Assembly (NCBI GenBank): GCA_010028705.1
Contig: RHAI01000001.1
Location: 3,104-67,103, forward strand
Origin: a bacterium
GTDB lineage: Bacteria > Margulisbacteria > Marinamargulisbacteria > SXXA01
Length of the DNA: 64,000 bases
Reading direction: 5' to 3'
The translations under genes and the position numbers were made by a program. How positions within the stretch are numbered: position 1 is the first letter of the stretch; every line of letters starts with the position of its first letter. This document shows, piece by piece, positions 2,584-58,533 of the stretch. The notes below the pieces were generated by a model. The model was not told the DNA's origin and did no database searches. It worked only from the letters and a program-made list of their open reading frames with translations.

Positions 2584-2611
2584 GTGTGACTCTCCTGTGT
2601 GGTGTGTTTAG

Positions 2612-3567: not shown

Positions 3568-4476
3568 CTATTTGATCACTAGCAGGCGATTTCGCCCCGA
3601 AACGCGATCACTGCCCGATCTGGCGGTTACAACAATGAGATAGGGTCCATTGGCGACCATCTCGCCAGTCCCATCACGACCATTCCATGAGACCCGATTA
3701 AATCCGGGCGACGCACCGTCACGCCCAGCAGGTACGAAATCGGTCCAAATCATACGGCCATTCATGGCAACAATTTTGATATCGATATCCGCCGCACGCG
3801 ATAATTGATACTCGATGACCGCCGTCGACTGATTCGGGTTTAACGGATTGGGCCCACTGATTAATCCAGATAGTCGAAGTGCGGATTCAGCGCGTAAATT
3901 AGAAATCGTACTGGCACTATAGTTCCCTCCAGAATCCCACACCTCAAGCCGCAACGAGTAGATTCCATTCGGCAATGGAGACGTGACTCGCATCGACGCC
4001 GTAACCGAGGACTGAGTCTCACCCTGGCGATTTTCAGATACAAGGGTCTGGTTGGAGGCGTCATTGAGTGAAATATTCCAACTCGATATCGTCGAATCGA
4101 TATCAAAAAAGCCCGCCTCAAACACCGTTGATACCCCAATAGAATCGCCCGTGCTCACCCATTGGCCCGCTGACATTACCCCTCGGATGCCGGGAGGGTT
4201 TATATCCAACGCCAATGGAACGGAGTCACTACCCGATGCCTTAAAATCAGACCCTACCCCTCGGTTGGCCGAACTCTCTTTATTAGCGGTTGTGGTCCGA
4301 ATCGGATTCGCCCCACCGCCGACCAACTGAACACGGGTCGGAGTAGCGGTATCGCGACGGATCTGATACTCGTTTGGAATGTCCGGACGATTGTTGGTCA
4401 ATGCAAGACTCGGCCGAGCGTACACTGCGCCTAGCATCATCAACAGAATCGCGATTTGAAATGGTAAACGAGTCAC
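3568..4476 (-). CDS. Secreted protein with a T9SS-type C-terminal sorting domain (FlgD Ig-like fold)
   Basis: A 302 aa ORF with a signal peptide (MTRLPFQIAILLMMLGAVYARPSLA). The C-terminal ~85 aa read NPLNPNQSTAVIEYQLSRAADIDIKIVAMNGRMIWT...RVSWNGRDGTGEMVANGPYLIVVTARSGSDRVSGRNRLLVIK. This matches the Por-secretion CTD pattern NPFNP..T.I.Y.L....V.L.IYD..G..V........G.H...W.G.......G.Y.....A......K. Confidence 0.55.
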   Translation of the reverse strand: MTRLPFQIAILLMMLGAVYARPSLALTNNRPDIPNEYQIRRDTATPTRVQLVGGGANPIRTTTANKESSANRGVGSDFKASGSDSVPLALDINPPGIRGVMSAGQWVSTGDSIGVSTVFEAGFFDIDSTISSWNISLNDASNQTLVSENRQGETQSSVTASMRVTSPLPNGIYSLRLEVWDSGGNYSASTISNLRAESALRLSGLISGPNPLNPNQSTAVIEYQLSRAADIDIKIVAMNGRMIWTDFVPAGRDGASPGFNRVSWNGRDGTGEMVANGPYLIVVTARSGSDRVSGRNRLLVIK

Positions 4477-4536: not shown

Positions 4537-6099
4537 TTACTTGGTATTTTTGACTATTGATTCCTCAAACAATGACAAGCCGGCCTTCGCACCTTCACCC
4601 ACCGCAATGACGATTTGTTTAAACGGCACCGTCGTCACGTCACCAGCGGCGTAAATCCCGTCGGAGCTGGTTTTACATTTTGAGTCCACAATGATTTCTC
4701 CCGACGCATTACAATCCACAACGCCACATACAAACTGGCTGTTTGGAACCAACCCGATTTGGACAAAAACACCCTCAACATCGAGAATCTGACGCTCTCC
4801 GGTCGATCGATTTTCAACCGACAAACCGACTACTTTTTGACCGTTACCTACCACTTCGACGGGAGCCGCATGGGTCACAATAGAAACATTGGGTAATCCT
4901 ATCGCTTTATCCACCAAAATTTGGTCAGCCTTCAGCTGTGGAGCAAATTCGACAACCACGACTGACTGGGCAATACCCGCCAAATCAATCGCCGCCTCAA
5001 TACCTGAATTACCCCCACCCACCACCGCCACCGATTTCCCCTTGTAGAAGGGACCGTCACAGTGCGGGCAATAGGCGACGCCTCGGCCAATGTACTCCGC
5101 CTCCCCGGGCACACCCAGCTTACGCCACTGAGCTCCCGTCGCGACAATAATCGATCTCGCACGCAGTGATTCCCCACTCGATAAATGCAGAGTTTTTATC
5201 ATACCGGTATCAATTCCGACGACTCGCCGGTTTTCGTAGCAGTCGATGCCATTCTCCGTAGCATGGCGCCGCAAATTAGCCGCTAAATCCGATCCCTCGG
5301 TATAGGGAATCGAAATAAAGTTCTCGATTCCCTTTGTATCATTTAACTGCCCCCCAATTCGGTCGGCCACAATTGCCGTTCGCAATCCCTTACGGGCGGT
5401 GTAAATTGCAGAACTGATTCCAGACGGCCCGCCGCCGATGATGGCCACATCCACTTCCGGTAATTCTTGGGGACTGTTATCCGCCGACTCATCCGACCCC
5501 ACATGCGCCGAAATGGCCTCGATCAGCTCCATTAAATTAGCTCGCCCCGAACTCACCAGATGCGTTCCGGACATCACACTGGGGACCCCCTGGATACCCA
5601 ACGCAGTAATCTGGTCTGGCACATAGGCCCCATCGACCATTTCATGCTCAAAATCAGGATGAATTAACGCCATTTGATTGAGTGCCTGAACAACATCCGG
5701 ACAATTTTCGCACGTGAGAGAGATAAATGTTTTGAGTCGGATCGGCCCCCGAAGGTGTCGGATACGACGCTGAATCCCATCATCTGGCAATTTGCCTTTA
5801 CCATCACTATTCAGTAGGGCAACGATTAGCGATGTAAATTCATGTCCCGTCGGGATTCCGGTAAAGCGAATACCCGTGGGACCGTGAACCGTATGAATGT
5901 GCAACTGAGGTACCGGCGCCATCTCCCCTCGTTCAATAACCTGAACATGAGGTGCAACCGACGCAATATCACTCAGCAAGGCCATCAATGCCGGACCATC
6001 CGGATGGGAGGTCGGATTCACCTGACACACAACCGTCGATGTCAACACACCTAACACCGTTTTGAGCTGAGCTTTTATTGAATCGTTCATCGTGTCCAA
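4537..6099 (-). CDS. ahpF: Alkyl hydroperoxide reductase subunit F (thioredoxin-reductase-like flavoprotein)
   Basis: A 520 aa ORF with an N-terminal CxxC (LTCENCPDV), a FAD/NAD Rossmann fold (GGGPSGISSAIY, GGGNSGIEAAIDLAG) and a redox-active CPHCDG. It lies immediately downstream of ahpC. Confidence 0.85.
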   Translation of the reverse strand: MDTMNDSIKAQLKTVLGVLTSTVVCQVNPTSHPDGPALMALLSDIASVAPHVQVIERGEMAPVPQLHIHTVHGPTGIRFTGIPTGHEFTSLIVALLNSDGKGKLPDDGIQRRIRHLRGPIRLKTFISLTCENCPDVVQALNQMALIHPDFEHEMVDGAYVPDQITALGIQGVPSVMSGTHLVSSGRANLMELIEAISAHVGSDESADNSPQELPEVDVAIIGGGPSGISSAIYTARKGLRTAIVADRIGGQLNDTKGIENFISIPYTEGSDLAANLRRHATENGIDCYENRRVVGIDTGMIKTLHLSSGESLRARSIIVATGAQWRKLGVPGEAEYIGRGVAYCPHCDGPFYKGKSVAVVGGGNSGIEAAIDLAGIAQSVVVVEFAPQLKADQILVDKAIGLPNVSIVTHAAPVEVVGNGQKVVGLSVENRSTGERQILDVEGVFVQIGLVPNSQFVCGVVDCNASGEIIVDSKCKTSSDGIYAAGDVTTVPFKQIVIAVGEGAKAGLSLFEESIVKNTK

Positions 6100-6135
6100 C
6101 CTCCTAATGGTGACTCGGGAATCCCAGAGCGCAGA

Positions 6136-6735
6136 TTACAGTTTACCGACTAAATCTAAGCTAGGTTCCAACGTCGATTCACCGGGATTCCATTTGGCTG
6201 GACATACCTCTTTTGGGTGTTTCGCGATGTATTGTGCCGCTTGGACTTTGCGAAGTAGCTCGTCGGCGTTACGACCGATCCCATTATCTGTTACTTCAAT
6301 CGACTTAATGGACCCGTCGGGCGCCACGATAAACGTCCCACGTCGCGCAATCCCATCCTCTTCGTTATAGACCCCAAAGGCACGAGATATCCGTGCGGTC
6401 GGATCCGCTAACATTGGGAATGTGATAGTTTTAATCGTGTCAGAGGCATCATGCCATGCCTTGTGGGTAAAATGGGTATCGGTGCTCACGGACACCACTT
6501 CAACGCCCATCGATTGAAGTTGGGGATATTTTTCGGCAACGTCAGCCAATTCGGTGGGACACACAAACGTAAAATCCGCCGGATAGAAAAAGAACACCAC
6601 CCATTTTCCGGAAAAATCATTTGAACTGACATCGATAAATGTATTGGCGTGGTACGCTTTTGCTGTGAATTCGGGGAGTTTAGAATTAATTGTTACGGTC
6701 ATTGAACATCTCCTTAAAAAATTTGATGGCGCCAT
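6136..6735 (-). CDS. ahpC: Peroxiredoxin AhpC (typical 2-Cys)
   Basis: A 199 aa ORF with the FTFVCPTEL peroxidatic Cys motif and a resolving Cys near the C-terminus (EVCPAKW). Confidence 0.9.
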   Translation of the reverse strand: MAPSNFLRRCSMTVTINSKLPEFTAKAYHANTFIDVSSNDFSGKWVVFFFYPADFTFVCPTELADVAEKYPQLQSMGVEVVSVSTDTHFTHKAWHDASDTIKTITFPMLADPTARISRAFGVYNEEDGIARRGTFIVAPDGSIKSIEVTDNGIGRNADELLRKVQAAQYIAKHPKEVCPAKWNPGESTLEPSLDLVGKL

Positions 6736-6773
6736 TGTCTCGGAACATCACGCCTATTTCCAATTCAAAAACA

Positions 6774-6798
6774 CTATCATATAATAGTTTTAAACTAT
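6774..6798. promoter_or_regulatory. Candidate OxyR/LysR-type operator in the ahpC-oxyR divergent intergenic region
   Basis: The sequence CTATcatataATAGttttaaaCTAT contains an ATAG-N7-CTAT dyad plus an extra CTAT half-site. It resembles the OxyR ATAGnTnnnAnCTAT repeat architecture and sits between divergent ahpCF and oxyR. Confidence 0.4.
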
Positions 6799-6829
6799 CA
6801 TAAATTTTTTACAATCCGACAAACCTATC

Positions 6830-7738
6830 ATGATTTCGATGAGTCAAGTGGAATATATACTCGCGGTGGCACGTACCGGGCATTTCGGGAAAGCGGCTCG
6901 GGAATGCCATATCAGCCAACCGTCCTTGTCCTCGCAAATTCAAAAAGCCGAGATCCATTTCGGTGTGACCCTATTCGATCGGAGTACAAAGCCTGTGACC
7001 GTCACGGAAGCCGGGCAACCCATTATCGACCATGCCATGGTGTTGATGGACGACTATCAGCAATTTGTCACTGCCACGGCCCGGCAAACGCCATTAAGTG
7101 GGACGTTTCACCTGGGCACCATTCCTACAATTGCGCCGTACTTATTACCGATGATTCTGCCCACCTTTTCTAAGACATATCCACACATTCAACTCACCGT
7201 ATCGATTGAGAAGACGCACACTCTCCTTGAGATGATGGATAGCCATCGTCTCGATGCCGCCATCCTAGCGACCGAACACGATGACCATCGACTGCACCAG
7301 GATCCCGTCGGATCCGATCCATTTTGGGTTGTAAGCTCAGACCCGGACATTTTGAGCCATTCGACCGTGACCCCGGATCTCCTCCACACCGTACCGCTGT
7401 GGCTATTAGACGACGGGCATTGTTTTCGGGACCAAGTGATCGACATGTGCCACCTCGATATCGGCCAACAGGGACTGCCTAATGTTCAATTTCGAGGTGG
7501 TAGCCTGGAAACCTTGATGCATTTAATCCAAAACGGTATCGGAACCACGTTAATTCCCGAAATGGCCATTCGATTTCTGCCAGCCAATACCCAGACCGCC
7601 ATCCGTCCGTTGGCCGCCCCCACCCCCGCTCGCACCATTCGTATCTCCCGGCGCAGCAAAAATCCCAAACGGTCGATTGCAGCGATTTTTCACACCCTGT
7701 GTCATGACGCGATGACGGCACCGCATGGGATGGGATAA
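6830..7738 (+). CDS. oxyR: LysR-family hydrogen-peroxide sensor/regulator OxyR
   Basis: A 302 aa ORF with an N-terminal LysR HTH (VEYILAVARTGHFGKAARECHISQPSLSSQIQKAE). It has a redox Cys pair spaced like OxyR C199/C208 (GHCFRDQVIDMCH). It is divergent from ahpCF. Confidence 0.8.
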   Translation: MISMSQVEYILAVARTGHFGKAARECHISQPSLSSQIQKAEIHFGVTLFDRSTKPVTVTEAGQPIIDHAMVLMDDYQQFVTATARQTPLSGTFHLGTIPTIAPYLLPMILPTFSKTYPHIQLTVSIEKTHTLLEMMDSHRLDAAILATEHDDHRLHQDPVGSDPFWVVSSDPDILSHSTVTPDLLHTVPLWLLDDGHCFRDQVIDMCHLDIGQQGLPNVQFRGGSLETLMHLIQNGIGTTLIPEMAIRFLPANTQTAIRPLAAPTPARTIRISRRSKNPKRSIAAIFHTLCHDAMTAPHGMG

Positions 7739-7743: not shown

Positions 7744-9567
7744 CTACGACGGGTTGGATTCCGACGGCAATATCGCTTCGCCCCGTTTGTCGGCCAAGTT
7801 CCAAAACTCCCAAAACCGTCCCCGCCGCTCAAGTAACTGATGGAGGGAACCTATTTCGATCACGCGCCCCCCATCCAAGACAACAATGCGGTCCATTTCG
7901 GCAATCGTACTGAGCCGATGGGCAATGACAATCGCCGTGACGCCACCCAAAAATCGATGCAATGACTCTTGAATTTTTTCTTCGGATTCGACATCCAGAT
8001 GAGACGTCGCTTCGTCCATTAATATGATATCGGGACGCCGTGCGATCGCACGCGCAATTCCCAACCGCTGACGCTCCCCTCCCGATAGCTTTACCCCTTT
8101 CTCACCAATCATGGTGTCGAGGCCATCCGGTAATTTGGCCACTAGATCTCTCAGGTTGGCCGTATCGATGACACTATCCAACGACGGGTCGGTGCTGTTA
8201 TCGCCTGAGGTGGCGATCATAATATTATCCCTCAAAGACACATTGAATACTTCCGTGTCCTGTAATACCACCGACACATGGTTAAAATAATCCGAGGACT
8301 TGATATCCGTGATCGATACATCATCAAATTGAATATCGCCGCTAAATCCCTCGCGTTCTTTGAGTAACAATTTGAAGAGAGTCGATTTTCCGGCACCCGA
8401 CAACCCAACAATCCCAACCTTCTCGCCACGATGAATCGTGAGCGATATGTCATGGAGGACGGGGACCTCCGCATAGGCAAATGACAGGTGGGTCAGGGTC
8501 AGGCGCTGCCACTGGCTCGGGAAGGCACGTTTATCCGTGTCATTTTCAATCACGATTGGGGTCCGTAACAGGTCCCGTAATCGTGAGATGCTGAACTGCG
8601 CGACCATCACATCCATTGATACCGACGACAACTCATCGATGGCTGTTCGTAAATCCGAAAAGTAGCTATTGAATAAAATGAGAAATGCCAGCTCATACCG
8701 GCCAATAAAAATCCCATAAATTATCCACCCCACCATTGCCACACGGGCCACGCCTTCCCAGATCGCCAGTACCATATTACGCGATTGATACCGATAAATT
8801 CGGATGGCAATCCGATTCAATACCGCCTCGGATCCATTCCAAAGCCGATCCAAAAACCGAGAGGTAATCCCCATCGCTTTGACCGTCCGAATCGTGTTGA
8901 TCGACTCAAATACGATGCCGCTGAGCTGTTCCTCGTAGTCATTCACCACTCGTGCGGCCGCACTAGCCTGCCGCGTTAGGTACAAGGAAAGTGCAAAATA
9001 GCTCATCAGAAATAGCACAACACAGGCCACAATCCGGTGATCAAACTGAGCAATCACCACCTGAATCGCCACGAGATGGACAATGATTTGAATAATATTC
9101 ATAAACCAAATTCGAATCAGGCGATTGAAGCCATCACTGGCGTTTTGAATTCGCTTCACCTTGTTGCCGGCATTTTCGAGCTCATGCCACCCCATGTCGA
9201 GGCGAAACAAGTGAGTCACCGCCTCCAGTGTACAATCAACCGACACGCGCTCGGCCACCCAAAACCCATACCGTTTCCCAACGTAATGGCAGACATTTCG
9301 ACCGATGACAGCCACCACCCACAGTCCCAACACGACAGCCATCGGCACCACGGATTGGCCCGGGTGATAGTGTGTGATCATCGTTACAATTTGAGCGAAC
9401 GCGTACGCTGGAAACAACCACAGAACATCCCCAGTCATGCGAACCAGGCTGGCAAATATAAACTGCGAACGATATCGATGGAGTCGGCCCGCCATGTCTC
9501 GCAACAGTTCACGCATATAAACCACCCTACCAAAGACCCGCGAATTAAACCATTCGTGCGCTGACAA
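7744..9567 (-). CDS. ABC exporter with fused permease and ATPase
   Basis: A 607 aa ORF with about six predicted TM helices in the N-terminal half. The C-terminal NBD carries Walker A (GLSGAGKST), the signature LSGGERQRLGIARA, Walker B (ILMDEATSHLD) and an H-loop. Confidence 0.8.
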   Translation of the reverse strand: MSAHEWFNSRVFGRVVYMRELLRDMAGRLHRYRSQFIFASLVRMTGDVLWLFPAYAFAQIVTMITHYHPGQSVVPMAVVLGLWVVAVIGRNVCHYVGKRYGFWVAERVSVDCTLEAVTHLFRLDMGWHELENAGNKVKRIQNASDGFNRLIRIWFMNIIQIIVHLVAIQVVIAQFDHRIVACVVLFLMSYFALSLYLTRQASAAARVVNDYEEQLSGIVFESINTIRTVKAMGITSRFLDRLWNGSEAVLNRIAIRIYRYQSRNMVLAIWEGVARVAMVGWIIYGIFIGRYELAFLILFNSYFSDLRTAIDELSSVSMDVMVAQFSISRLRDLLRTPIVIENDTDKRAFPSQWQRLTLTHLSFAYAEVPVLHDISLTIHRGEKVGIVGLSGAGKSTLFKLLLKEREGFSGDIQFDDVSITDIKSSDYFNHVSVVLQDTEVFNVSLRDNIMIATSGDNSTDPSLDSVIDTANLRDLVAKLPDGLDTMIGEKGVKLSGGERQRLGIARAIARRPDIILMDEATSHLDVESEEKIQESLHRFLGGVTAIVIAHRLSTIAEMDRIVVLDGGRVIEIGSLHQLLERRGRFWEFWNLADKRGEAILPSESNPS

Positions 9568-9653
9568 TGGCGCCCGGGGGATTCTCGACCTATGTCCCTC
9601 ACATACAGGGTCTGCTACGCGTTATCGGGGGCTCACTACCGGGTTATCGGACC

Positions 9654-10310
9654 CTATTTTATGCCAATCAATTTATGCGATTGGGGAATCACCCGTACGT
9701 CCGCTAATTTTTGATGAGCAAAATTGTAGGCTCTCTCAATATCCTCAATGGTCGCACGGTCTTTGATACCCCCGAACGGAGTCACGGGTTGAATTATAAA
9801 CGGCACATCCGGCGCTACCGTCGCGACAGTTTGCACCATTTTTTTGAGATCCAACACTGGAAACCCGCGGGTCAGCACCCATTTTACAAATACGTTCGGG
9901 CGTCCCCGAAGGATCGTCATAAAATCTGCAAATTCTTTATCAAATCCAGGTTTATAATCTACGGAAAAATAGGTAAATAAATCCACTACTTCTTCAAGGT
10001 GCTTCGGTAAGGTCCCATTGGTTTCCAAATAAGCCGGTACTGGGATATGAGGCAATAGTTCTTTAATTGCGGCCACCTGAATCAGCGGCTCGCCTCCCGT
10101 TATTGATATCGAATGGGGGTTTTTCTGAATCAATGGGTGAAGCTCGTCGAGCACTTTTTCTAACGTGTAGGGTTTACGCTGATGGATAAAATCAGGTTCA
10201 TCGCAATACTCGCAATGGATATTACATCCATAAAACCGAAGAAAAATTTGGGGATACCCGATAAAGGGGCCTTCCCCCTGAAAACTATAAAAAATATCTT
10301 TAATGTACAT
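9654..10310 (-). CDS. queE: Radical SAM 7-carboxy-7-deazaguanine synthase (QueE-like)
   Basis: A 218 aa ORF. Its N-terminus (MYIKDIFYSFQGEGPFIGYPQIFLRFYGCNIHCEYCDEPD) matches the QueE signature IFxSxQGEG...FxRxxGCNLxCxYCDT, including the Cx3CxxC cluster. Its start overlaps the upstream helicase stop by 1 nt. Confidence 0.65.
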   Translation of the reverse strand: MYIKDIFYSFQGEGPFIGYPQIFLRFYGCNIHCEYCDEPDFIHQRKPYTLEKVLDELHPLIQKNPHSISITGGEPLIQVAAIKELLPHIPVPAYLETNGTLPKHLEEVVDLFTYFSVDYKPGFDKEFADFMTILRGRPNVFVKWVLTRGFPVLDLKKMVQTVATVAPDVPFIIQPVTPFGGIKDRATIEDIERAYNFAHQKLADVRVIPQSHKLIGIK

Positions 10311-12436
10311 TAGAGTCGTTTGACATCGGCGTATTTCGCCATCACCTTCCGGGTGTGATCCGTAAATTGAATATTAAGCACTAGTTTGTCCTCTGAGCCT
10401 TCGATGGATTGAACGATCCCTTTCCCCCATTGCCCGTGGTCAATCCATTCACCCACGGTGAACTCCTGAAACGACTTCCCGCCACCGGACCCGCCCGTGG
10501 GGGTCCAATTATCAAGCGTATTTCCATTCATTTCGACCCAGCGAGTGAGGCCGGTACGCTGGGAATCTGTCACCGATTCGGACACCATGGCCCCCACACA
10601 CTGGGACGGCCATTCATACGCAAACCGAGACAGTTGGGTCGGCTGATCATGCGCCACATGACGCTGAAATGATGCACACAACGACAGATGATGGGTGGCC
10701 CGGCTAATGCCCAGATACACATACCGTCGTTCTTGAGCTAACAGATCCGGGCGATCGATAGCTGAACCGTGTGGCAAGGTCCCCTCTTCAAACCCAGGAA
10801 TAAACACGCATCGGAATCGACGGCTTTTGGATGATTTAAGTGGCATTAATGTGACGGCGTCACCCGACGTAGGGGCATCATCACTGAGTTGCTGAGTCGT
10901 CACCTGAGTGAACACCTGATCGACGGTCCACTCGTTCTCGATGGCGGCATCGATAAACTCGTCAATCGATTGAAGTTGGTCCAAGGATTCAAGCGTGTTT
11001 TCTTCATCCAGGAGCGATCGATACCCACTGTCCCGTGCGATATTATCCAACACGACCCCGGCTAAAATGTCGGGATTTTCTTTAATTTCGGCCTCCCAAT
11101 GAGTGAGCAAATCCACGAGACCTAAGATTTTAGGCTGAACCAAATCGGATAGGCGATCCGTATCTTGCAGGTCAAAGACACCGTCCGAATGCGTGGGCAT
11201 ACACGTTAGCACCGTCGAAATCTCGGGTTCGGTCAGTTGAAATGGCGCTATCGACAACAACTGCGCCAACGCCTGACGATCACAGGGGTTCATCAACAAG
11301 CGCAGATATAACATTAAATCTCGAATTTCACTGTGACCAAAGGGGGTGTGACGTCCCATACTGCGGAGCCGAATCGCGTGTAATCGCAACTGCTCTTCAA
11401 GATACACGGCGTGAGACCCCGCACGATACAAAATACAAAAATCGTTATACGACCACCGTTTTTCCCGACGCATCGATTCAATCGTCTGTAAAATATACTG
11501 GCTTTCCTCCAGTTCACTGGCCGTCACCATCACCGTCACTTTATCCGTTTCCTGTGAAACATCCGCCACAGGTTGGGGAGATGTGGATAATGCATTGACG
11601 AGAGTATTTATGACTGGTGTTCGGCCCCACAACTCCAGCAACTCGATGGTGTGCATCCCTGGGACCGTCGCCAAATCTGTGAAGGGGTCATAGCCATCCA
11701 TCGTCTCATCGGATATCCGCTGCCCCGGGTCGATGGCAACCGTGACATGTATCCCCGCGTCCACCGCCTCACGAATCAGCTGGACCGCTACGGGCGACAG
11801 GTCTTCCCCATGATCAATAAGCCAGACGGGATGGTCATCGGCCATGCGTTGCCGAATATCCGGAGCGGTTTGAAACAGCCGCAGCGTGAGGGCCAGAATG
11901 TCCTCCACGTTAATCGCATTCGATCGACGGAGATACTCCCGATACTGAGTCATCGCCAGATCGACCCGGTGAGTATCGTGCCGATCATCCGCCGTCGACG
12001 CCACATGCTGGGAGTCCCGATGAATACGCGCCACAAGATCTCGTGGCGCCAATCCAATCCCTTCGAATTGAGGATCATTTAGAATCTCGATGGCGACCCG
12101 AATCGATTCAATTGGGTCAAACACAGTAAAATGGGGCGCCAACCCCGCTAACGCCGCGTGGGATCGTAGCCACCCCAAACACACCAATTCGATACGATTA
12201 AACTGAACTTTTAGAACATCGTTCCCGACAATTTCACCGGTCCATGCCCGCCAATCGTTCAGTGCATGAGCCGACCCCGACATCGCGATCAGTGACGGGG
12301 TAGCTACGGCTTCCAGGAGATATGCGATTTTATGGGCCAACAGGGTCGTTTTACCGGTACCGGAGGCCCCAACAATCATGAGTGGCGAATCGGTATATCG
12401 GATCGCGTCGTGTTGTGTCGTCGTAAATGTCGTCAT
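10310..12436 (-). CDS. UvrD/PcrA-family helicase-like protein with a degenerate motif II
   Basis: A 708 aa ORF. The Q-motif and Walker A match UvrD (TTTQHDAI...PLMIVGASGTGKTTLL). Motif VI reads VYLGISRATHHLSL, and there is a UvrD C-terminal domain (EFTVGEWIDHGQWGKGIVQSIEG...). Where DE(F/Y)QD is expected the sequence is WLIDHGEDL. Confidence 0.7.
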   Translation of the reverse strand: MTTFTTTQHDAIRYTDSPLMIVGASGTGKTTLLAHKIAYLLEAVATPSLIAMSGSAHALNDWRAWTGEIVGNDVLKVQFNRIELVCLGWLRSHAALAGLAPHFTVFDPIESIRVAIEILNDPQFEGIGLAPRDLVARIHRDSQHVASTADDRHDTHRVDLAMTQYREYLRRSNAINVEDILALTLRLFQTAPDIRQRMADDHPVWLIDHGEDLSPVAVQLIREAVDAGIHVTVAIDPGQRISDETMDGYDPFTDLATVPGMHTIELLELWGRTPVINTLVNALSTSPQPVADVSQETDKVTVMVTASELEESQYILQTIESMRREKRWSYNDFCILYRAGSHAVYLEEQLRLHAIRLRSMGRHTPFGHSEIRDLMLYLRLLMNPCDRQALAQLLSIAPFQLTEPEISTVLTCMPTHSDGVFDLQDTDRLSDLVQPKILGLVDLLTHWEAEIKENPDILAGVVLDNIARDSGYRSLLDEENTLESLDQLQSIDEFIDAAIENEWTVDQVFTQVTTQQLSDDAPTSGDAVTLMPLKSSKSRRFRCVFIPGFEEGTLPHGSAIDRPDLLAQERRYVYLGISRATHHLSLCASFQRHVAHDQPTQLSRFAYEWPSQCVGAMVSESVTDSQRTGLTRWVEMNGNTLDNWTPTGGSGGGKSFQEFTVGEWIDHGQWGKGIVQSIEGSEDKLVLNIQFTDHTRKVMAKYADVKRL

Positions 12437-12446
12437 ATTGAGTCCT

Positions 12447-13568
12447 CTAATGTGTGAGTGGGTTGCGATTCCATCGATTGATGTGTGGGGTCCACTTCAT
12501 CGAGGATGCCCTGACCTGAAATTCCCCATCGTTTTGACCAAATTCCACCACCCCGTCCATCAAATATTTGATATTGTTCAGGGTCTGGTCGGGAACGGTA
12601 CCCTCTTCCATCAAAAATAGCGTCGTCACACCACCAAACGAAATCGCCGTTCGTGCAATCTGACTCAAAAATCGTTGAACCGAAGGCAGATCGAAGTTAA
12701 TTAATAAGCTCGAAATAGAGTCGACAACCCGACGCCCTCCCAATTTACTTTGAACGGTTTGCCCCAATTCGAAGCTTGCATCTGAAATAATCCCGGCTAA
12801 TTGATTCAATTCCAACATACCGTTTAAGGCAAATCGTTCGGACTCCGGTGCCGAAAACGTCGACCAGGAGTAGGCATCCACAAACCGGAGTAGGCATAAT
12901 GACTCGAGCTCGGTCACTGTCGTTTTAAGATCTTTATCCATAATCCGCCGAACCTGCTGCGGATTATCATCCAATGCCACAAAGAGACATCGCTCGGATC
13001 GCTGTAATCCGCTCACCATAAACTGGCGCGCAAAGGTGGATTTCCCGCTACCTACCGGACCGATCACTAAAATATTCGAGCCTTTCGGAAGACCGCCGTA
13101 CAATGCTTCATCCAACGACCCAATACCCGTCGATACGGTGTCGATATTGACTGGCTCAGCCATATCCCGTTCGCGGGGAGCCACTATCTCCGGTTTGGGT
13201 CGAAAGCGAAATAGCAAGGCTTTGGCGCGCGCCTTCAACTCTTCGATATTGAATGGTTTCGTCACGAAATCGTCAGCCCCTTCTTCAAATCCCGTGAGCT
13301 TGTTGTACTCGTCACCCAATGCCGAAATAATGATGATCGGGGTTTCCGCGATATCCGGATGAGATCGGACCGCCTTACACACCTCAAAGCCGGTCTTTTT
13401 AGGCATAATTATATCGGTGATAATCAAATCTGGACGTTCCCGAAGCGCCACTTCGATGGCCTCGTCACCGTCACTGGCGGTCACCACATCCATTCCAATG
13501 TCTTTGAATACCATCTCCGTCAACATCAGAACATGATATTCATCGTCAGCAATCAAGATTTTTGTCAT
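12447..13568 (-). CDS. Response-regulator receiver domain fused to a KaiC/RadA-like RecA-superfamily ATPase
   Basis: Start chosen at MTKILIADDEY. The longer ORF to 13655 would overlap the upstream gene. The REC domain reads ILIADDE...DLIITDIIMPKKTGFEVCKAVR. The KaiC-like domain has GIGSLDEALYGGLPKGSNILVIGPVGSGKSTFARQF. Confidence 0.7.
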   Translation of the reverse strand: MTKILIADDEYHVLMLTEMVFKDIGMDVVTASDGDEAIEVALRERPDLIITDIIMPKKTGFEVCKAVRSHPDIAETPIIIISALGDEYNKLTGFEEGADDFVTKPFNIEELKARAKALLFRFRPKPEIVAPRERDMAEPVNIDTVSTGIGSLDEALYGGLPKGSNILVIGPVGSGKSTFARQFMVSGLQRSERCLFVALDDNPQQVRRIMDKDLKTTVTELESLCLLRFVDAYSWSTFSAPESERFALNGMLELNQLAGIISDASFELGQTVQSKLGGRRVVDSISSLLINFDLPSVQRFLSQIARTAISFGGVTTLFLMEEGTVPDQTLNNIKYLMDGVVEFGQNDGEFQVRASSMKWTPHINRWNRNPLTH

Positions 13569-13575
13569 GCTACCC

Positions 13576-14316
13576 TCATATCGGCTGCCGCAATACAATG
13601 CCGCGTTGAGGCAAAATCTCAAACGAAAATTCTGACAAATCCACTCGCGTTCCACGCATCTTTTTTACCCGGACCGTTCGAATGTACTTGGTGTTTAGTT
13701 TGGTTAACTTCAAAATTATGATACCCGACGCCGCAAATTCCTCGATTCCATGGTGGCTAACCTTGTCACTACCGACCGGGGAATACGATGTCAGAAGAGT
13801 GGTGCAATCCGAAATATCTTCGATTGCAAAAATAAGCCGACGAATATACTCAGTAATCTCGGGAATATGCCGCTCAGAAAAAATAAGTGGCGCCACCGGA
13901 TCTATCACTAAACGGGTGGCCTTGAAGTCTTTGACATACCCCAGAACCTCTAAAATAATTCGATCAATATCGATCCCTGATGTTCCCATCTGGGCAGATG
14001 AAAAGTGGCTTGTCACATCAATAATCCGAAGCATCCCCTGTTCAAGATAGGTCTGCAATGACCATCCCAATGCCTCGGCATCGGCGATCACATGTTCGGG
14101 TTTTTCGTCGATCGAAATGTAAATTACACGCTCACCCAACCGAAGACCCTCCAGTAAAAACTGGAGTGTAAAAATGGTTTTACCCGCCCCGGGCTCACCG
14201 GCGACTAAATAGGATCGCCCCTTCGGAAACCCTCCGAATAATAATTGATCGAACCCTTCGACTCCACTACTCACTTTTAACATCGGCATAGGGTTCCAAT
14301 TTACAGTGATCGACAA
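13576..14316 (-). CDS. Single-domain KaiC-like (RecA-superfamily) ATPase
   Basis: A 246 aa ORF with SSGVEGFDQLLFGGFPKGRSYLVAGEPGAGKTIFTLQFLLEG and a C-terminal KKMRGTRVDLSEFSFEILPQRGIVL typical of the KaiC/Rad55 family. An alternative internal start (MPMLK) is possible. There is a 7-nt gap to the downstream REC-KaiC gene. Confidence 0.7.
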   Translation of the reverse strand: MSITVNWNPMPMLKVSSGVEGFDQLLFGGFPKGRSYLVAGEPGAGKTIFTLQFLLEGLRLGERVIYISIDEKPEHVIADAEALGWSLQTYLEQGMLRIIDVTSHFSSAQMGTSGIDIDRIILEVLGYVKDFKATRLVIDPVAPLIFSERHIPEITEYIRRLIFAIEDISDCTTLLTSYSPVGSDKVSHHGIEEFAASGIIILKLTKLNTKYIRTVRVKKMRGTRVDLSEFSFEILPQRGIVLRQPI

Positions 14317-14891
14317 AACTGCTCAATATGCGTCCGTGCCTTCGCCAATGCACGACTTCGATGACTGAGGCTATTTTTTTCCTCTGGCCCCATCTCAGCA
14401 AACGTCCGGTGATGCCCCTCAGGTATAAAGATAGGGTCATATCCAAATCCATCATCCCCCCGGATTTCACGGGTGATAGTTCCGTCGACACAGCCATCAA
14501 CGGTGACAATGGATTGATCCGGAAAACGGAGTGCGATGACGCATCGAAACCGAGCCCGTCGGTCGTGATTATCGGCAAGTTCATCGAGAATCTTTCGACA
14601 CATATCGGTCCCAGTCGCCTGAGGTCCCGCATACCGCGCGGAATGTACCCCGGGGGCCCCCTGTAATCCATCGACTTCAAGGCCCGAATCGTCGGCCAGT
14701 AGGATCACCCCGGATCGAATCGGCCAGGCGGCTAATTTTTTAATGGCATTCGACGCAAAAGTATCCCCATCTTCGAGCGCTGAATGTCGATGACCGTATT
14801 CATGGCTAAAGGAAACCACCTCACATCCGGAAAGAATCGTTTGAATCTCGGATACTTTATGACCATTATCACTGGCAACGACAATACGCAT
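14301..14891 (-). CDS. rdgB: Non-canonical purine NTP pyrophosphatase (RdgB/Ham1, dITP/XTPase)
   Basis: A 196 aa ORF: MRIVVASDNGHKVSEI...FGYDPIFIPEGHHRTFAEMGPEEKNSLSHRSRA. Its start shares one nucleotide with the relA stop. Confidence 0.8.
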   Translation of the reverse strand: MRIVVASDNGHKVSEIQTILSGCEVVSFSHEYGHRHSALEDGDTFASNAIKKLAAWPIRSGVILLADDSGLEVDGLQGAPGVHSARYAGPQATGTDMCRKILDELADNHDRRARFRCVIALRFPDQSIVTVDGCVDGTITREIRGDDGFGYDPIFIPEGHHRTFAEMGPEEKNSLSHRSRALAKARTHIEQFCRSL

Positions 14892-17059
14892 TACTTGGCC
14901 AATCTCTGAATAGAATATACATCGGCAATTTGAGCCAACGCCTGACGAATCACGTTAATATGTTGAACGTCCCGAATATCAACGGTTACGGTCGCTTTCA
15001 TCCGCCCACCTGTCCGTGCGGTCTTGGTTCGAATTTCCTGAATATTTGTTTTGGTATTGGTGATCCGATGAATAATATCCTCCAAGATTCCGATCCGATC
15101 AAACGCCTCAATCTGAAGGCTAGCGCGAAAGGTTTTATCGCGAGATGACAGCACCCATTCAACCGCCACTAATCGGGCGCGATCATCATCAGGTACCGAC
15201 AAAATATTGGCACAATCGGGACGGTGCACCGCCACACCACGCCCGGTGGTGACATAGCCGACAATTGGATCTCCGGGCACCGGGCTACAGCACCGAGGCA
15301 GTGTCACCAAGACGTTGGTTTCGCCCATAACCTTAATTGATTCGATGCCGGTTCGCCGGGATTGTTTCGCCGACGGGGGAGCAAAGGGTGCCGAGGTCGA
15401 TGAAATGTCGATTTTGAGCAATCGCTCTAAGACGCGCTCAATATCGCGCGTCGACAAGTCTCCCTCGGCCAACGCCAAGTACACATCGTCCGGGCGACTA
15501 TAGTCCAATTGCCGCACGAGCTGATCGGTAAATTCACGGGTCAACACATCTTTGGGTACGAATCCCAAAAAGACCAAGAGTCGCTCAAGTTTTTCACGCC
15601 CACGCTCGATGATTTCCGACTGATTTTGACGTTTAAACCATTGCTTTATTTTGGACTTAGCTTGCCGAGTTTGAACCACGTTCAACCAATCCAACTTTGG
15701 ACTTGGCGTTTTAGACGTCAATATTTCGATTCGATCGCCGCTTCGAAGACGATAATTGGTATTTACGATTTGACCGTTTATTTTGGCACCGACATACGAA
15801 TGGCCAATTTCGGAATGGATTTTATACGCAAAGTCCAATGGGGTGGCACCCTTTGGCAACACCTGGACATCACCTTTGGGAGTAAAAATAAACACCTCAT
15901 CAATAAACAAATCGAGTTTGAGGTTTTGCAGAAATTCTTTAGGGGCCCCGCCTTCTTTTTCGGTTTCTAATATCTGCCGTAGCCACGCAAAGTCTCCATC
16001 GAAATGACCGCGAGTATCCCCCTCTTTGTACCGCCAATGAGCCGCGATGCCATATTCGGCAATTTGATGCATTTCCTTAGTTCGAATTTGAATTTCGACC
16101 GGACGCCCCAACTTTCCGATAACGGTTGTATGGAGACTCTGATACAAATTGCTTTTGGGCATCGCAATATAATCCTTAAATCGTCCAGCCAACGGTTTGT
16201 ACATCGAGTGGACAACCCCTAAAACGGCATAACAGTCCTGCAACGACTCAACAATGATCCGAACTCCCAATGTGTCAAAGAGCTCGTCGTAACTCAAATT
16301 CTGTGACACCAATTTTTTGTAAATACTAAAAAAATGCTTGGGACGCCCATAGATTTTGGCCGTAATCCCGGCGCGGTTAATTAAAGGTGCTAAATCATCG
16401 ATGACGGTTTGAACAACGGCTTCCCGCTCATCCCGCTTGAGCGCTACTAACTTTTTAATCCTCTGAAACTCTTCATGCTGGAGGTAGTAGAACGAATAAT
16501 CTTCAAGTTCCCACTTTAAGGACCACATTCCCAACCGATGAGCCAATGGCGAAAAAATCTCACTGGTTTCCCTCGAAATTAAGATTTGCTTCTCTTTGGA
16601 CAAATGTTTCAAGGTTCGCATGTTATGGAGTCGATCGGCCAATTTGATAATCACCACGCGGATATCCTGGGCCATCGCCAAAAACATCTTTCGAAAATTT
16701 TCGGCTTGCTCGTCCTCTTTTGACTCAAAATAAATCTTACCCAATTTGGTCACCCCTTCGACCAAAAGATAGATATCCTCGCCAAAGAATTGGGTGATTT
16801 GATCGCGCGTCGCGCCAGTATCTTCGACGGTATCGTGGAGCAAACCGGCAGCGACCGTCGCTGGATCTTGCTGCAAATCGGCTAAAATGTACGCGACTTC
16901 AACCGGATGAATAATATACGGATCGCCCGATTTTCGCTGCTGGGGTGCATGTGCATCGCGTGCAAATTCGTAGGCACGTTGGACCAACTGAACCGATTCA
17001 TCCGGCATATATCGGGAAACTAGATCCATCAATTCCTCGACCGAGTGCTCCAAACGCAT
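14891..17059 (-). CDS. relA/spoT: Bifunctional (p)ppGpp synthetase/hydrolase (RelA/SpoT family)
   Basis: A 722 aa ORF with an HD hydrolase domain (HPVEVAYILADL...HDTVEDT), a synthetase domain (RPKHFFSIYKK...YQSLHTTV), a TGS domain and a C-terminal ACT domain. Confidence 0.9.
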   Translation of the reverse strand: MRLEHSVEELMDLVSRYMPDESVQLVQRAYEFARDAHAPQQRKSGDPYIIHPVEVAYILADLQQDPATVAAGLLHDTVEDTGATRDQITQFFGEDIYLLVEGVTKLGKIYFESKEDEQAENFRKMFLAMAQDIRVVIIKLADRLHNMRTLKHLSKEKQILISRETSEIFSPLAHRLGMWSLKWELEDYSFYYLQHEEFQRIKKLVALKRDEREAVVQTVIDDLAPLINRAGITAKIYGRPKHFFSIYKKLVSQNLSYDELFDTLGVRIIVESLQDCYAVLGVVHSMYKPLAGRFKDYIAMPKSNLYQSLHTTVIGKLGRPVEIQIRTKEMHQIAEYGIAAHWRYKEGDTRGHFDGDFAWLRQILETEKEGGAPKEFLQNLKLDLFIDEVFIFTPKGDVQVLPKGATPLDFAYKIHSEIGHSYVGAKINGQIVNTNYRLRSGDRIEILTSKTPSPKLDWLNVVQTRQAKSKIKQWFKRQNQSEIIERGREKLERLLVFLGFVPKDVLTREFTDQLVRQLDYSRPDDVYLALAEGDLSTRDIERVLERLLKIDISSTSAPFAPPSAKQSRRTGIESIKVMGETNVLVTLPRCCSPVPGDPIVGYVTTGRGVAVHRPDCANILSVPDDDRARLVAVEWVLSSRDKTFRASLQIEAFDRIGILEDIIHRITNTKTNIQEIRTKTARTGGRMKATVTVDIRDVQHINVIRQALAQIADVYSIQRLAK

Positions 17060-17371
17060 GGATAAATACTAACTTAATTTTATAAACAAAGGTACCAGTT
17101 CGACGCGATGGACCATCGGGCAATTCAATCGCGACTAAATCGACCGAACGACTCGACTATCTTTAACGTTTGTGATCTTAAGGGTACACTATGGTCCAGA
17201 ATTTGGGACTGTTCCGATAACCAACTTTGGTTCAATCGCGAGTGGAATACATGCCCAACGGAGCGGTTACTCACTCACCACTGTGGCGCCAGTTGCGGGC
17301 CGTTGAGAGAGACCTTGTTTCGCCGAGTCCATGTGTACCCCTCGCTAAGATTTTTATTAAGGTGAGACACC

Positions 17372-20170
17372 ATGACAACTCTTTTTCCCGACGATTTATT
17401 TGCTGACCGACATATTGGCCCCAAAGGCCAGGATCTCACAACTCTACTGGACCGAATTGGCGTAGGATCACTCGACGAACTGACCCAACTCACCGTCCCA
17501 GCCGCAATCCTGAGGAACCGCCCACTCGCGACTGGCGACGCATTAACCGAACGAGAGCTTTTGGATGAACTTCACCAAATCGCCTATAAAAATAAAATAT
17601 TATCCAACTTCATTGGGGGAGGATATTACGGAACAGTTACCCCCCCAGTCATTCGCCGAAATGTCACCGAAAATCCCGGTTGGTACACGGCATACACCCC
17701 GTATCAAGCGGAGATCGCTCAAGGCCGTTTAGAAGCATTATTTAATTTCCAAACCGTCATTGCCGAATTAACGGGCTTGCCGATTGCGAATGCGTCCCTT
17801 CTCGACGAAGCCACTGCGGCGGCGGAAGCCATGACACTCGCCTATCGATCAGGGAATGGGGCTCGCCGATTTTTTGTATCGACTCGCTGCTTTTCGCAAA
17901 CAATCGAGGTCATTCGCTTGCGCGCCGAACCGTTACATATCGAGGTCGAAGTCGGCGATGTTGACGAGTTTGTTCCATCCACTGATTACTTTGGCGTACT
18001 CATTCAATATCCCGCCCATGACGGGACCATCACCGACTTTAAACAACTGGTTTCTGACGCTCATGCTCATCGCATTCAGGTTACTGTGGCCGCTGACATA
18101 TTAAGCTTGACGTTACTTGTTCCGCCAGGTGAGTGGGGCGCCGACATCGTTGTGGGTTCAACTCAGCGATTGGGAGTACCCATGGGATATGGGGGGCCTC
18201 ATGCCGCATTCTTTGCGACCAAAGACGAATTCAAGCGGCAAATCCCGGGTCGAATCATCGGAGCGTCGGTCGATCGCCTAGGGAACCCGGCATTCCGAAT
18301 GGCCCTCCAAACTCGGGAACAACATATCCGTCGCGAGAAAGCCACATCCAACATTTGCACCGCCCAAGCGTTATTGGCCATTATGGCATCGTTTTATTCC
18401 ATCTATCACGGACCCGATGGACTCAAACGAATAGCGACTCGAATCCACCAATTGGCTCATTGGGCGGCACGGTCGATTGGGTCACTCGGATTTTCAATCG
18501 CGTCGGCCAGCTATTTCGATACCGTTTCCGTTACCGTGGCATCCGCCACTCAATTGAGTGAGGAAGCGATAAAACGGGGCATCAATATCCGGATAATCGA
18601 CGCCACAACCGTTGCATTCAGTGTTGACGAAACTCACTCGGTACATGACCTTGAGCAACTGGTGAGTGTATTCGAGGCGGTGTCTGGCCAATCCCTAGCG
18701 CCCCACCCATCGTACGAGATTGGAATCCCCACTCATCTCCTCCGAAGGTCCGCATTTATGCAACAACCGGTGTTTAACCGATACCACAGCGAAACTCAGC
18801 TGATGCGCTACATTAAGCAATTGGAAACTAAAGATTTAGCATTAAATACCGCGATGATCCCGCTCGGAAGCTGTACCATGAAACTGAATGCTGCCGCGGA
18901 AATGATCCCCATTACCTGGCGTAATTTTTCACAGCTCCACCCCTTTGTTCCAGTGAATCAAGCCGAAGGGTACCGCATCATATTTGATCGATTGTCCGAC
19001 GCCCTGTGCGAATCTACCGGATTTGCGGCGTGTTCATTACAGCCGAATTCGGGCGCTCAAGGTGAGTACGCGGGTCTTATGGTGATCCGCGCGTACCACC
19101 ACTACCGAGGGGATGCGCATCGAACGATTGCGCTCATTCCATCGTCTGCCCACGGAACAAACCCGGCCAGTGCCGCATTGGCGGGATTGGAGATTGTGAT
19201 TGTATCCTGCGACGACCAGGGTAATATCGATGTCGATGATCTCCGAGCGAAAGCCATTCAATACTCCGATCGATTAAGCGTGTTAATGGTGACCTACCCC
19301 TCCACCCATGGCGTGTTTGAATCAGAGATTCAAACGATCTGTGAGATTATTCACCAGAACGGCGGACAAGTGTACATGGACGGGGCCAACATGAATGCCC
19401 AAGTGGGGCTGACCTCTCCCGCCTTGATTGGCGCTGACGTCTGCCACATCAACCTTCACAAAACATTTTCTATTCCTCACGGGGGGGGTGGCCCCGGAAT
19501 GGGACCGATTTGTGTTGCCGCTCACCTTGAACCGTTTTTGCCCGGGCATCCATTCGTCGACCTTGGCCATTCCCATGCCACCCGTCCCGTATCCGCCGCC
19601 CCATGGGGAAGCGCCTCCATTTTAATTATTTCGTACGCGTATATTCGGATGATGGGTGGCGCGGGCTTGACCCGCGCTACCCAGGTGGCGATTGCCAACG
19701 CAAATTACATCAAAGAGCGACTGGCACCCCATTATGACGTGTTATATGTCGGCCAAAATGGACGGGTTGCCCATGAATTAATATTAAATTTCCAACCATT
19801 CAAAAAACAGGGAAAAATCGAAGTTGAAGATATTGCCAAACGACTCATCGACTATGGATTTCATGCTCCAACCGTTTCTTTTCCAGTGGCATTTTGTGAC
19901 GCCATGATTTCCATCCGATCAGAAATTGACGCGATAATCGAGGGATCCGCCGATGCCACACACAATGTCCTGAAAAACGCCCCACATACAGCCGCCGAAG
20001 CAATCGCAACGGACTGGGGGCACCCTTACTCACGAGAGACCGCCGTATACCCACCCGGGGTCAACCGATCCACGAAATTCTGGCCATCGGTCGCGAGGAT
20101 CGACGGCGCCTATGGAGATCGGAATTTAGTCTGCACCTGTGCACCGATCGAAACGTACGTTACCGCCTAG
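17372..20170 (+). CDS. gcvP: Glycine dehydrogenase (decarboxylating), single-chain P-protein
   Basis: A 932 aa ORF. The N-terminus (FADRHIGP...) is typical of GcvP, and the PLP-lysine region reads [22 protein letters not shown]. It is preceded by a 312-nt leader. Confidence 0.9.
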
Positions 20171-20172
20171 GT

Positions 20173-20631
20173 ATGTTATCCAAAAAAACAAAATACGCCA
20201 TCAGTGCATTGCGAATCCTCGCCCGCCACGCTCACCCTGAGCCGATGTTAATTTCCGACATTGCTCAAAAAGGAGACATTCCTAAAAAATTTTTAGAACT
20301 CATCTTATTGGAGCTGAAAAAACATCACATCCTGGAATCCAAAAAAGGCCAAGGGGGCGGATATTTTTTAAAAATTAATCCTGAAGAGATTAGTATTGGC
20401 CAAATCATTCGAAAACTATCTGGCCCGATCGGTATGGTGTCGTGCGTGAATCGTGACGGATACCTACCCTGTGACGAATGTCCGGGCGAGGATTTATGTG
20501 GGCTGCGGGAAATCATGACCAACGTACTCGATGCAACGTGTCAGATACTCGACAACGAAACGTTGGCTGACTTATTGGTTCGCGAAGACCGCCTATTGCA
20601 GGAAAAGCGCGATTACATGTTTCATATATAG
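20173..20631 (+). CDS. Rrf2-family transcriptional regulator (IscR/NsrR-like) with a Cys-rich C-terminus
   Basis: A 152 aa ORF. The N-terminal wHTH reads MLSKKTKYAISALRILA, and the C-terminus carries a cysteine cluster (CVNRDGYLPCDECPGEDLC). Confidence 0.75.
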   Translation: MLSKKTKYAISALRILARHAHPEPMLISDIAQKGDIPKKFLELILLELKKHHILESKKGQGGGYFLKINPEEISIGQIIRKLSGPIGMVSCVNRDGYLPCDECPGEDLCGLREIMTNVLDATCQILDNETLADLLVREDRLLQEKRDYMFHI

Positions 20632-20633
20632 GT

Positions 20634-54326: not shown

Positions 54327-54345
54327 ACAATTACCTTTACAGTAT

Positions 54346-54693: not shown

Positions 54694-54719
54694 AACTCTT
54701 TAACTCCTATCCTAATATT

Positions 54720-58528: not shown

Positions 58529-58533
58529 GTGAA

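Follow-up and report, generated by a model that had tools for sequence, protein, structure and literature searches.

Six tightly packed genes in a Margulisbacteria genome probably form a lineage-specific string of three independent two-gene modules

Do six genes that lie on one strand, with hardly a nucleotide between them, make up one system? The question is raised by a 64-kb stretch of an uncultured bacterium of the Margulisbacteria (contig RHAI01000001.1 of assembly GCA_010028705.1, positions 3,104 to 67,103; hereafter the window, to which all coordinates refer). Six minus-strand genes fill its positions 9654–17059 and encode, in order of transcription, a RelA/SpoT homologue (Rel), the purine nucleoside triphosphate (NTP) pyrophosphatase RdgB, a KaiC-family ATPase (KaiC-1), a two-component receiver (REC) fused to a second KaiC-family domain (REC-KaiC-2), a PcrA/UvrD-like protein and a radical S-adenosylmethionine (SAM) enzyme resembling QueE. 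Open reading frames (ORFs) and Pfam and NCBIfam domains agree with this gene list as it was given in an original prediction made from the letters alone. That prediction went on to propose one system in which the stringent response would be linked with a KaiC/receiver module and a helicase. Our analysis points elsewhere: with a probability of roughly 0.7, the block consists of three two-gene modules of independent evolutionary origin that, in this lineage and its compact genome, form one string and are probably co-transcribed. Only a small group of uncultured freshwater bacteria has all three next to one another.

The junctions of the block are tight, as is usual in this genome. The stop of rel and the ATG of rdgB have 1 nt in common at 14891, and the helicase stop and radical SAM start likewise at 10310 (TAATG). 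KaiC-1 and REC-KaiC-2 are 7 nt apart and REC-KaiC-2 and the helicase gene 10 nt apart, all as first described. One junction is revised: a 16-nt overlap of rdgB with KaiC-1 needs a TTG start at 14316, and the ATG at 14289 is more likely, leaving an 11-nt gap. On four near-identical metagenome contigs the gene is called from this ATG, and the resulting length agrees with orthologs of 233–243 aa. For rel, gene callers report an alternative start at 17029 that gives a 712-aa product. Packing in the block is no tighter than the genomic background: in a simple gene call, 56 genes make 91.5% of the window coding, same-strand gaps have a median of 11 nt, and 17 of 38 same-strand junctions outside the cluster measure 11 nt or less. 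The adjoining plus-strand run gcvP–Rrf2–ABC-F–aminotransferase–aroB–aroQ (17372–25030) served as an internal control for the meaning of tight junctions; its six genes are functionally unrelated, and their gaps are 2, 2, −17, −4 and −4 nt. Since tight spacing is normal in the window, the overlapping junctions are weak evidence of shared function.

Gene order in relatives divides the block into three parts. We compared about 170 loci, 69 of them recovered through REC-KaiC-2 and 80 through the helicase (tblastn with the window proteins), together with twelve context look-ups. The first part, rel–rdgB, precedes the KaiC pair in no loci but those of the window's own clade (L007, L008, L011, L090 and L092 in our numbering of loci), and only there does rdgB directly follow rel. 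Members of this clade are 82–84% identical to the window in REC-KaiC-2 and 77–79% in Rel (the latter for L007, L011 and L092). The second part, the KaiC pair, is found far more widely: of 65 loci that encode a full-length REC-KaiC-2, about 46 have a KaiC-1-type gene immediately upstream on that strand, at gaps of −4 to +89 nt, and in some 40 loci outside the window clade the pair stands between parAB and purA or follows dnaA. The third part is equally distinct, the degenerate helicase adjoining a radical SAM gene in every locus examined. These loci include six of the window clade (L007, L011, L089, L090, L091 and L092), three of a second sublineage (L017, L019 and L141) and four contigs found by exhaustive hidden Markov model (HMM) search (carrying P0206, P0207, P0209 and P0214). 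These four contigs have no KaiC pair within 5–6 kb and carry aconitase or CCA-adding enzyme genes upstream. The radical SAM partners are orthologous, 51–81% identical over their full length. Six-gene synteny is thus absent beyond roughly the genus or family level, an outcome that the original prediction had itself named as pointing to chance adjacency. The joining of the three modules is recent, and their tie to the stringent response is not a conserved one.

These comparisons make it very unlikely that the six genes form one system in which a KaiC/receiver module and a helicase-like effector are coupled to guanosine tetra- and pentaphosphate ((p)ppGpp) signalling. Such a system would account for an order that at least four species-level lineages retain at saturated synonymous divergence and within two different sets of flanks, and in E. 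coli ppGpp and UvrD cooperate in transcription-coupled repair. Yet all loci outside the window clade lack the rel–rdgB linkage, and the string of the sister lineages continues on both sides of the block with equally short gaps (panK–accB-like–recJ on one side, acs on the other), tight spacing being the genomic norm. The helicase, moreover, is without the catalytic Glu needed for the translocase activity of the E. coli model.

Co-transcription of all six genes is plausible even so. The original prediction had read both co-expression and possibly a functional unit from the tight coupling, and of these we keep only the first, as plausible. The junctions leave no space for intergenic promoters, and the internal promoters or terminators that were expected to weaken a unit do not exceed chance: the cluster holds 12 promoter-like sites against 13.6 ± 4.3 expected in a shuffle comparison, with no excess, and 16 terminator-like sites against 10.7 ± 3.4, which we judge to be at shuffle level. 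The best available support for a rel-to-radical-SAM transcription unit, though indirect, is that rearrangement breakpoints coincide with the block ends. The six genes are intact within wholly different flanks in the window and in L007, L011 and L092: a divergent gcvP upstream and an ATP-binding cassette (ABC) exporter downstream in the window, panK–accB-like–recJ upstream and acs–cytochrome–molybdoenzyme downstream in the sister lineages.

Candidate control elements lie at the ends of the block. A sigma-70-like site on the minus strand at 17378–17350 overlaps the first codons of gcvP and is a consensus match only (9/12). A short GC hairpin at 9641–9654, downstream of the radical SAM gene, has its T-run on the plus strand alone and does not establish a minus-strand terminator. 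Rfam at gathering thresholds finds four tRNAs only in the whole window, and no riboswitch or other Rfam match in the rel/gcvP intergenic region; a permissive scan of 9400–17500 returns a single chance-level match (ncS54, E = 0.56) and no element in the cluster. The strongest promoter-like match between 7.5 and 17.5 kb runs antisense within KaiC-1, an 11/12 sigma-70 consensus match (TTGACA-17-AATAAT) on the plus strand at 13931–13959. Table 1 collects the coordinates.

Table 1. Features of the six-gene block and its borders in the 64-kb window
Feature	Coordinates	Strand	Basis
rel (long bifunctional RelA/SpoT homologue)	14891..17059	-	TIGR00691 and domain order
rdgB/HAM1 non-canonical purine NTP pyrophosphatase	14301..14891	-	PF01725, TIGR00042
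KaiC-1, stand-alone CI-like single-domain KaiC-family ATPase, 237 aa	13576..14289	-	PF06745
REC-KaiC-2, receiver and divergent KaiC-family domain, 373 aa	12447..13568	-	PF00072, PF06745
Motor-degenerate PcrA/UvrD-like protein with C-terminal Tudor, 708 aa	10310..12436	-	UvrD-helicase, UvrD_C, PcrA_UvrD_tudor
QueE-like radical SAM enzyme, 218 aa	9654..10310	-	Cluster motif, best NCBIfam/PDB matches
Divergent rel/gcvP intergenic region, likely promoter region of the string	17060..17371		312 nt, sole long non-coding gap upstream
Gap between the radical SAM gene and the ABC exporter gene downstream	9517..9653		86-137 nt

The KaiC pair joins an apparently active ATPase to a receiver-bearing paralogue. 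KaiC-1 matches PF06745 at 207.9 bits (gathering cut-off 26.6) and in phmmer is closer to the CI domain of KaiC (131.6 bits) than to CII (57 bits). It keeps a Walker A motif (GEPGAGKT) and the KMRGT arginine finger, and where KaiC has E77–E78 it has a catalytic D-E pair that is invariant in 41 orthologues. KaiC-1 falls below the circadian KaiC models (PRK09302, 152.6 bits against 408; TIGR02655, 111 against 546) and is a single domain, not a CI–CII fusion. These motifs suggest that KaiC-1 is the catalytic subunit of the pair.

REC-KaiC-2 probably binds ATP and hydrolyses it poorly. Both of its domains are secure, PF00072 at 93.7 bits against 30.2 and PF06745 at 88 bits against 26.6. The receiver is complete, with D52, S82 and K104 invariant and D8/D9 present in at least 90% of 23 homologues. 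Walker A is kept throughout the family, but an invariant D200–D201 replaces the E-E pair, its first Asp aligning to the RecA general base E96, and the arginine-finger motif reads SMKWT against KMRGS, so that the finger is Lys. Because Asp-Asp stands for Glu-Glu and Lys for the arginine finger, hydrolysis is probably impaired. An AlphaFold2 model of the protein (predicted local distance difference test score, pLDDT, 85.9; linker 125–138 disordered) retrieves KaiC hexamers in Foldseek at about 1e-15, and archaeal PH0284 with a target-normalised TM-score of 0.83 and a root-mean-square deviation of 2.5 Å.

The pair is very unlikely to be a KaiC clock cut in two. A phospho-oscillator or hourglass with KaiC-1 as CI and the KaiC domain of REC-KaiC-2 as CII would explain the strong CI match of KaiC-1, the superposition of the REC-KaiC-2 model on KaiC hexamer chains and the host phylum's position, judged from the names of relatives, as sister to Cyanobacteria. 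However, the KaiC-2 domain has no CII-specific affinity (78.5 bits to CI, 72.6 to PH0284 and about 70 to part of CII), KaiC S431/T432 align to K334/Y335, and these changes come together with those in the catalytic pair and the finger. The receiver sits where the CI–CII linker would be, no Pfam match to KaiA or KaiB was found among the ORFs scanned in the 64 kb, and the pair also occurs in phyla unrelated to Cyanobacteria. A clock of this kind is extremely improbable, and of the "split KaiC" first proposed only the CI-like half survives; its partner is not CII-like and lacks the S431/T432 sites.

The KaiC pair is a widely distributed cassette. Loci with the pair belong to Margulisiibacteriota and to metagenome-assembled genomes (MAGs) labelled Abditibacteriaceae, Methylomirabilis and Binatia/Deltaproteobacteria. 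The named relatives of REC-KaiC-2 are Candidatus Margulisiibacteriota and Marinamargulisbacteria, and the best 120 REC-KaiC-2 homologues listed are all full-length. About 11 loci, in Planctomycetota/Brocadiia and a few others, have REC-KaiC-2 with no adjoining KaiC-like gene, and in eight loci of the Termititenax and Riflemargulis types it is flanked by KaiC-like genes on either side. The latter (L037, L039, L040, L041, L044, L048, L049 and L050) read as a divergent KaiC-like gene, REC-KaiC-2 and a second KaiC-like gene, the Pfam KaiC match in L039 reaching 205 bits. The pair is usually flanked by a divergent parA–parB and a convergent purA (13 loci or more for each), and L017 has dnaA upstream. 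The position is consistently origin-proximal: the pair diverges from parA–parB in most Margulisiibacteriota loci (L010, about 95 nt apart, L018, L024–L026, L030, L034, L035, L046, L067 and L071) and follows dnaA in L017.

Known KaiC-family systems resemble the pair in part. Archaeal KaiC-like hubs (PH0284, PH0186, SSO2452 and ArlH) have the same single RecA/KaiC-domain fold, and archaeal KaiC-REC fusions likewise join a KaiC-family domain to a two-component receiver. PMC5847659, citing Makarova et al. 2017, notes those fusions, reported only in six Methanosarcinaceae genera, and also inactivated "iKaiC" domains in archaea; there, as here, a seemingly active copy has a seemingly impaired paralogue as its partner. 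In contrast to the archaeal fusions, the host here is bacterial, the order is REC-KaiC, the pair spans a whole bacterial phylum and several others, and it forms a two-gene, sometimes three-gene, cassette with a CI-like partner. The PF06745 family is likewise common to cyanobacterial KaiC and to the double-domain homologues of the Pseudomonas, Rhodobacter and Legionella types. In bacteria, genes for KaiC homologues typically neighbour those for histidine kinases and single-domain response regulators (bioRxiv 10.1101/2022.01.26.477890), so a link to two-component signalling is a known theme. Unlike these, the pair consists of two separate single-domain genes with the receiver fused to the ATPase rather than encoded alongside, it has no S431/T432 equivalents, and no KaiA, KaiB or histidine kinase was found in the window. 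We found no paper on KaiC in Margulisbacteria or on a KaiC-1/REC-KaiC-2 pair.

A switch or hub would fit these features better than the KaiABC clock. While gene content, motif states and conserved adjacencies are observed directly, complex formation and all biochemical roles are what we infer from them. KaiC-1 would serve as catalytic subunit and REC-KaiC-2 as an ATP-binding, poorly hydrolysing regulatory paralogue. A histidine kinase that phosphorylates Asp52 would change how a mixed or stacked RecA-type ring assembles or how much ATPase activity it yields.

The third module is built on a PcrA relative that has lost its motor motifs. The protein has the domain architecture of PcrA, C-terminal Tudor included (PF00580, 78.5 bits; PF13361, 93.6; PF21196, 28.3), and is collinear with full-length PcrA (1pjr, residues 14–723), yet it falls below the helicase equivalog cut-offs (TIGR01073, 257.9 against 911; TIGR01075, 185 against 1144). 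Against 1pjr, motif Ia reads SGSAHAL in place of TFTNKAA and motif II DHGED in place of DEYQD, with loss of the catalytic Glu and Gln. Motifs III, IV and V are degenerate as well, and Walker A and the motif VI Arg are kept. This pattern is common to about 18 representative clusters of a 50%-identity library recovered by exhaustive HMM search; word-indexed searches gave only four close clusters and so understated the family. The label "degenerate helicase" was therefore apt, and it applies family-wide.

The surface by which PcrA contacts RNA polymerase is largely preserved. PcrA/UvrD helicases of superfamily 1A carry a C-terminal Tudor domain that binds RNA polymerase (PMC5397179, PMC8318588), and the PcrA residues needed for this binding are H681, W684, K712 and L714 (PMC5397179). 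Their counterparts here are H667, W670, R696 and V698, and the motifs H..WG.G and K/R-x-L-M-A-K-Y-A are kept across the family. The protein thus resembles PcrA/UvrD helicases in full-length collinearity, Walker A, the motif VI Arg and the His, Trp, basic and hydrophobic Tudor contacts, and differs from them in its degenerate motifs and its constant QueE-like neighbour. An AlphaFold2 model from a 4-sequence alignment was too poor to use (pLDDT 51; predicted template-modelling score 0.33).

The helicase gene evolves fast yet is retained. No gene of the block changes faster: when the window is compared with L007, the nonsynonymous divergence (dN) is 0.59 for the helicase, 0.43 for rdgB and 0.13–0.17 for rel, KaiC-1, REC-KaiC-2 and the radical SAM gene, so that the helicase reaches 3–5 times the values of these last four. 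All pairs are saturated at synonymous sites (proportion of synonymous differences, pS, about 0.75–0.8), so these values are usable only relative to one another, together with the observation that the nonsynonymous proportion, pN, stays below pS. Since pN is below pS and an intact ORF of 700–730 codons is present in all lineages, a decaying pseudogene is ruled out, and the gene encodes a retained pseudo-enzyme.

Its partner is a QueE-like radical SAM enzyme. The gene keeps the cluster motif C29-x3-C33-x2-C36, the QueE-type N-terminus FQGEG...F.R..GC, and TGGEP and ETxGT. Its three best PDB matches are all QueE (5tgs, 6nhl and 4njg; E-values 7e-8 to 6e-7), and so are the nearest NCBIfam subfamilies. 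Identical proteins of the block are present in freshwater metagenomes and in an NCBI MAG (NDC82045–NDC82049), where this one (NDC82045.1) is named QueE, the helicase "hypothetical protein" and KaiC-1 "recombinase RecA". Every QueE subfamily cut-off is nevertheless missed by a wide margin: TIGR04349, 63.1 against 300; TIGR03365, 57.4 against 206; TIGR03963, 54 against 260; TIGR04508, 41.8 against 240; TIGR04322, 39.5 against 200. The assignment as QueE (7-carboxy-7-deazaguanine synthase) is accordingly softened here to QueE-like. Unlike QueE of a queuosine operon, this enzyme is partnered with a pseudo-helicase, and queC, queD and tgt were not found in the 64-kb window.

The partnership with a QueE-like enzyme is particular to the degenerate helicases. 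About 75 other PcrA/UvrD-like loci, whose proteins are 20–26% identical to the window protein and mostly have canonical motifs, show no QueE-like neighbour, and neither do two canonical PcrA genes looked up individually, one followed by pgi (P0208) and one by a convergent tgt (P0135). The latter, at 7001–10408 of L169, brings PcrA beside the gene for queuine tRNA-ribosyltransferase, a PcrA/queuosine-gene neighbourhood that is possibly a coincidence. The literature yielded no paper on a QueE–UvrD pairing. As a working model, the PcrA descendant would have kept nucleotide binding (Walker A and the motif VI Arg) and the RNA-polymerase-docking Tudor surface and, translationally coupled to the QueE-like enzyme, would form with it a scaffold-plus-enzyme pair acting at nucleic acid or RNA polymerase. 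Formation of a 7-deazapurine is the default guess for its chemistry.

An anti-phage role for these genes is effectively refuted. Weak PADLOC matches had prompted us to consider a defence island in which a GajB-like helicase would work with KaiC-like ATPases and a radical SAM enzyme of viperin-like type (GajB at no more than 100 bits, pVip at 20 bits, mad8 at 20–30 bits). These are generic superfamily matches far below those to PcrA (258 bits) and QueE, and neither GajA nor any other system partner is present. The genes are conserved vertically in core-genome, origin-proximal contexts and show no mobile-element or composition signal, leaving this idea next to no probability.

Some observations weigh against three independent modules, and a rival reading is a four-gene unit. 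Here the KaiC switch would control the motor-dead PcrA-like protein and its QueE-like partner, for example their loading on or release from RNA polymerase or DNA, with rel–rdgB as mere neighbours. In the window clade the four genes follow one another with tight coupling, and they are contiguous again in L017/L019, where REC-KaiC-2 is only 62% identical and the order runs dnaA–KaiC-1–REC-KaiC-2–helicase–radical SAM–aminopeptidase P. Adjacency in two sublineages with different flanks could mean a functional link, and KaiC/RecA-family ATPases and superfamily 1 helicases both act on nucleic acids. A second, independent helicase–KaiC adjacency is present in Abditibacteriaceae, where a canonical pcrA lies directly upstream of the KaiC pair (L054, 6625–8946; L069, 6436–8847). 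An unbootstrapped neighbour-joining tree of REC-KaiC-2 joins both four-gene sublineages with L009, which has no helicase pair, and inheritance and loss are not cleanly separable from selection for linkage. Three further cautions apply to the wider argument: an Asp in place of the catalytic Glu does not prove loss of ATPase activity, co-transcription is deduced from sequence and gene order, and taxonomic placement follows the names of relatives rather than marker genes.

The distribution of the two pairs still favours independent modules. The four degenerate-helicase contigs that lack a KaiC pair undercut any single unit and rule out the proposition that the KaiC pair always accompanies the degenerate helicase; conversely, in about 40 loci no UvrD-like gene lies within 10 kb of the KaiC pair. 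Because the two four-gene sublineages group in the REC-KaiC-2 tree, a single ancestral juxtaposition is enough to explain both. We consider the four-gene unit unlikely. A bolder extension, that the pseudo-helicase and the QueE-like enzyme are an undescribed two-protein machine bringing 7-deazapurine or other radical chemistry to transcription complexes or nucleic acid, and that in the window clade this machine has come to lie behind a receiver-controlled KaiC switch within the rel unit, its dosage tracking the stringent-response operon, is a long shot.

The first of the three modules is conventional. Rel exceeds the TIGR00691 cut-off (780.5 bits against 499) and has the HD_4 (HD hydrolase), RelA_SpoT (synthetase), TGS and ACT domains of a long RelA/SpoT homologue, with HDTVED and EIQIRT motifs in its translation. 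RdgB matches PF01725 at 199 bits and TIGR00042 at 159 against a cut-off of 145. Together they would perform housekeeping tasks, (p)ppGpp metabolism and purine NTP house-cleaning.

The window surrounds a replication origin. dnaA (55797–57140), dnaN (57389–58528), recF (58534–59601), dciA (59594–60061) and parA (62620–63384) mark an origin region at 54000–63400, GC skew turns from negative to positive near 58 kb, and GC content falls to 0.39 at 54–58 kb. Given these origin genes and the skew flip, long co-directional minus-strand runs are expected to the left of the origin; the block lies about 40 kb from oriC, its genes co-directional with replication. Between dciA and parA, a 637-aa orphan ORF on the plus strand (60656–62569) has no Pfam match at E <= 0.01.

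Other parts of the window hold further genes of note. The plus strand encodes two large ankyrin-repeat proteins, one of 584 aa (32368–34122) and one of 764 aa (37891–40185), and the 38–40 kb bin shows the most extreme GC skew (−0.23) and AT skew (+0.21) of the window. A DabB-like proton-antiporter subunit and DabA (PF10070, 642 bits) at 40437–43932 on the plus strand form a putative inorganic-carbon pump pair. Genes for oxidative and proteotoxic stress (ahpF, ahpC, a divergent LysR-type regulator, msrB, clpB and msrA) cluster at 4537–7738, 30883–31350 and 34200–37594. On the minus strand at 1165–3529, two adjoining ORFs of 472 and 305 aa without a Pfam match lie beside a FlgD Ig-like-domain protein (3568–4476).

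Resolving the string into its parts changes what is worth following. As a stringent-response device, the six-gene "system" is not worth pursuing, and the locus carries a lesson of method: in compact genomes, overlapping junctions alone are weak evidence of common function. What it exposes are two conserved and wholly uncharacterised modules in an uncultured phylum sister to Cyanobacteria. The KaiC pair offers a simple bacterial test case for the use of KaiC-type rings as non-clock switches. More worth following still is the constant coupling of a Tudor-bearing, motor-dead PcrA relative to one QueE-like enzyme. This pseudo-helicase pair shows plainly how a pseudo-enzyme can be retained, and it may point to a new role for QueE-like chemistry.

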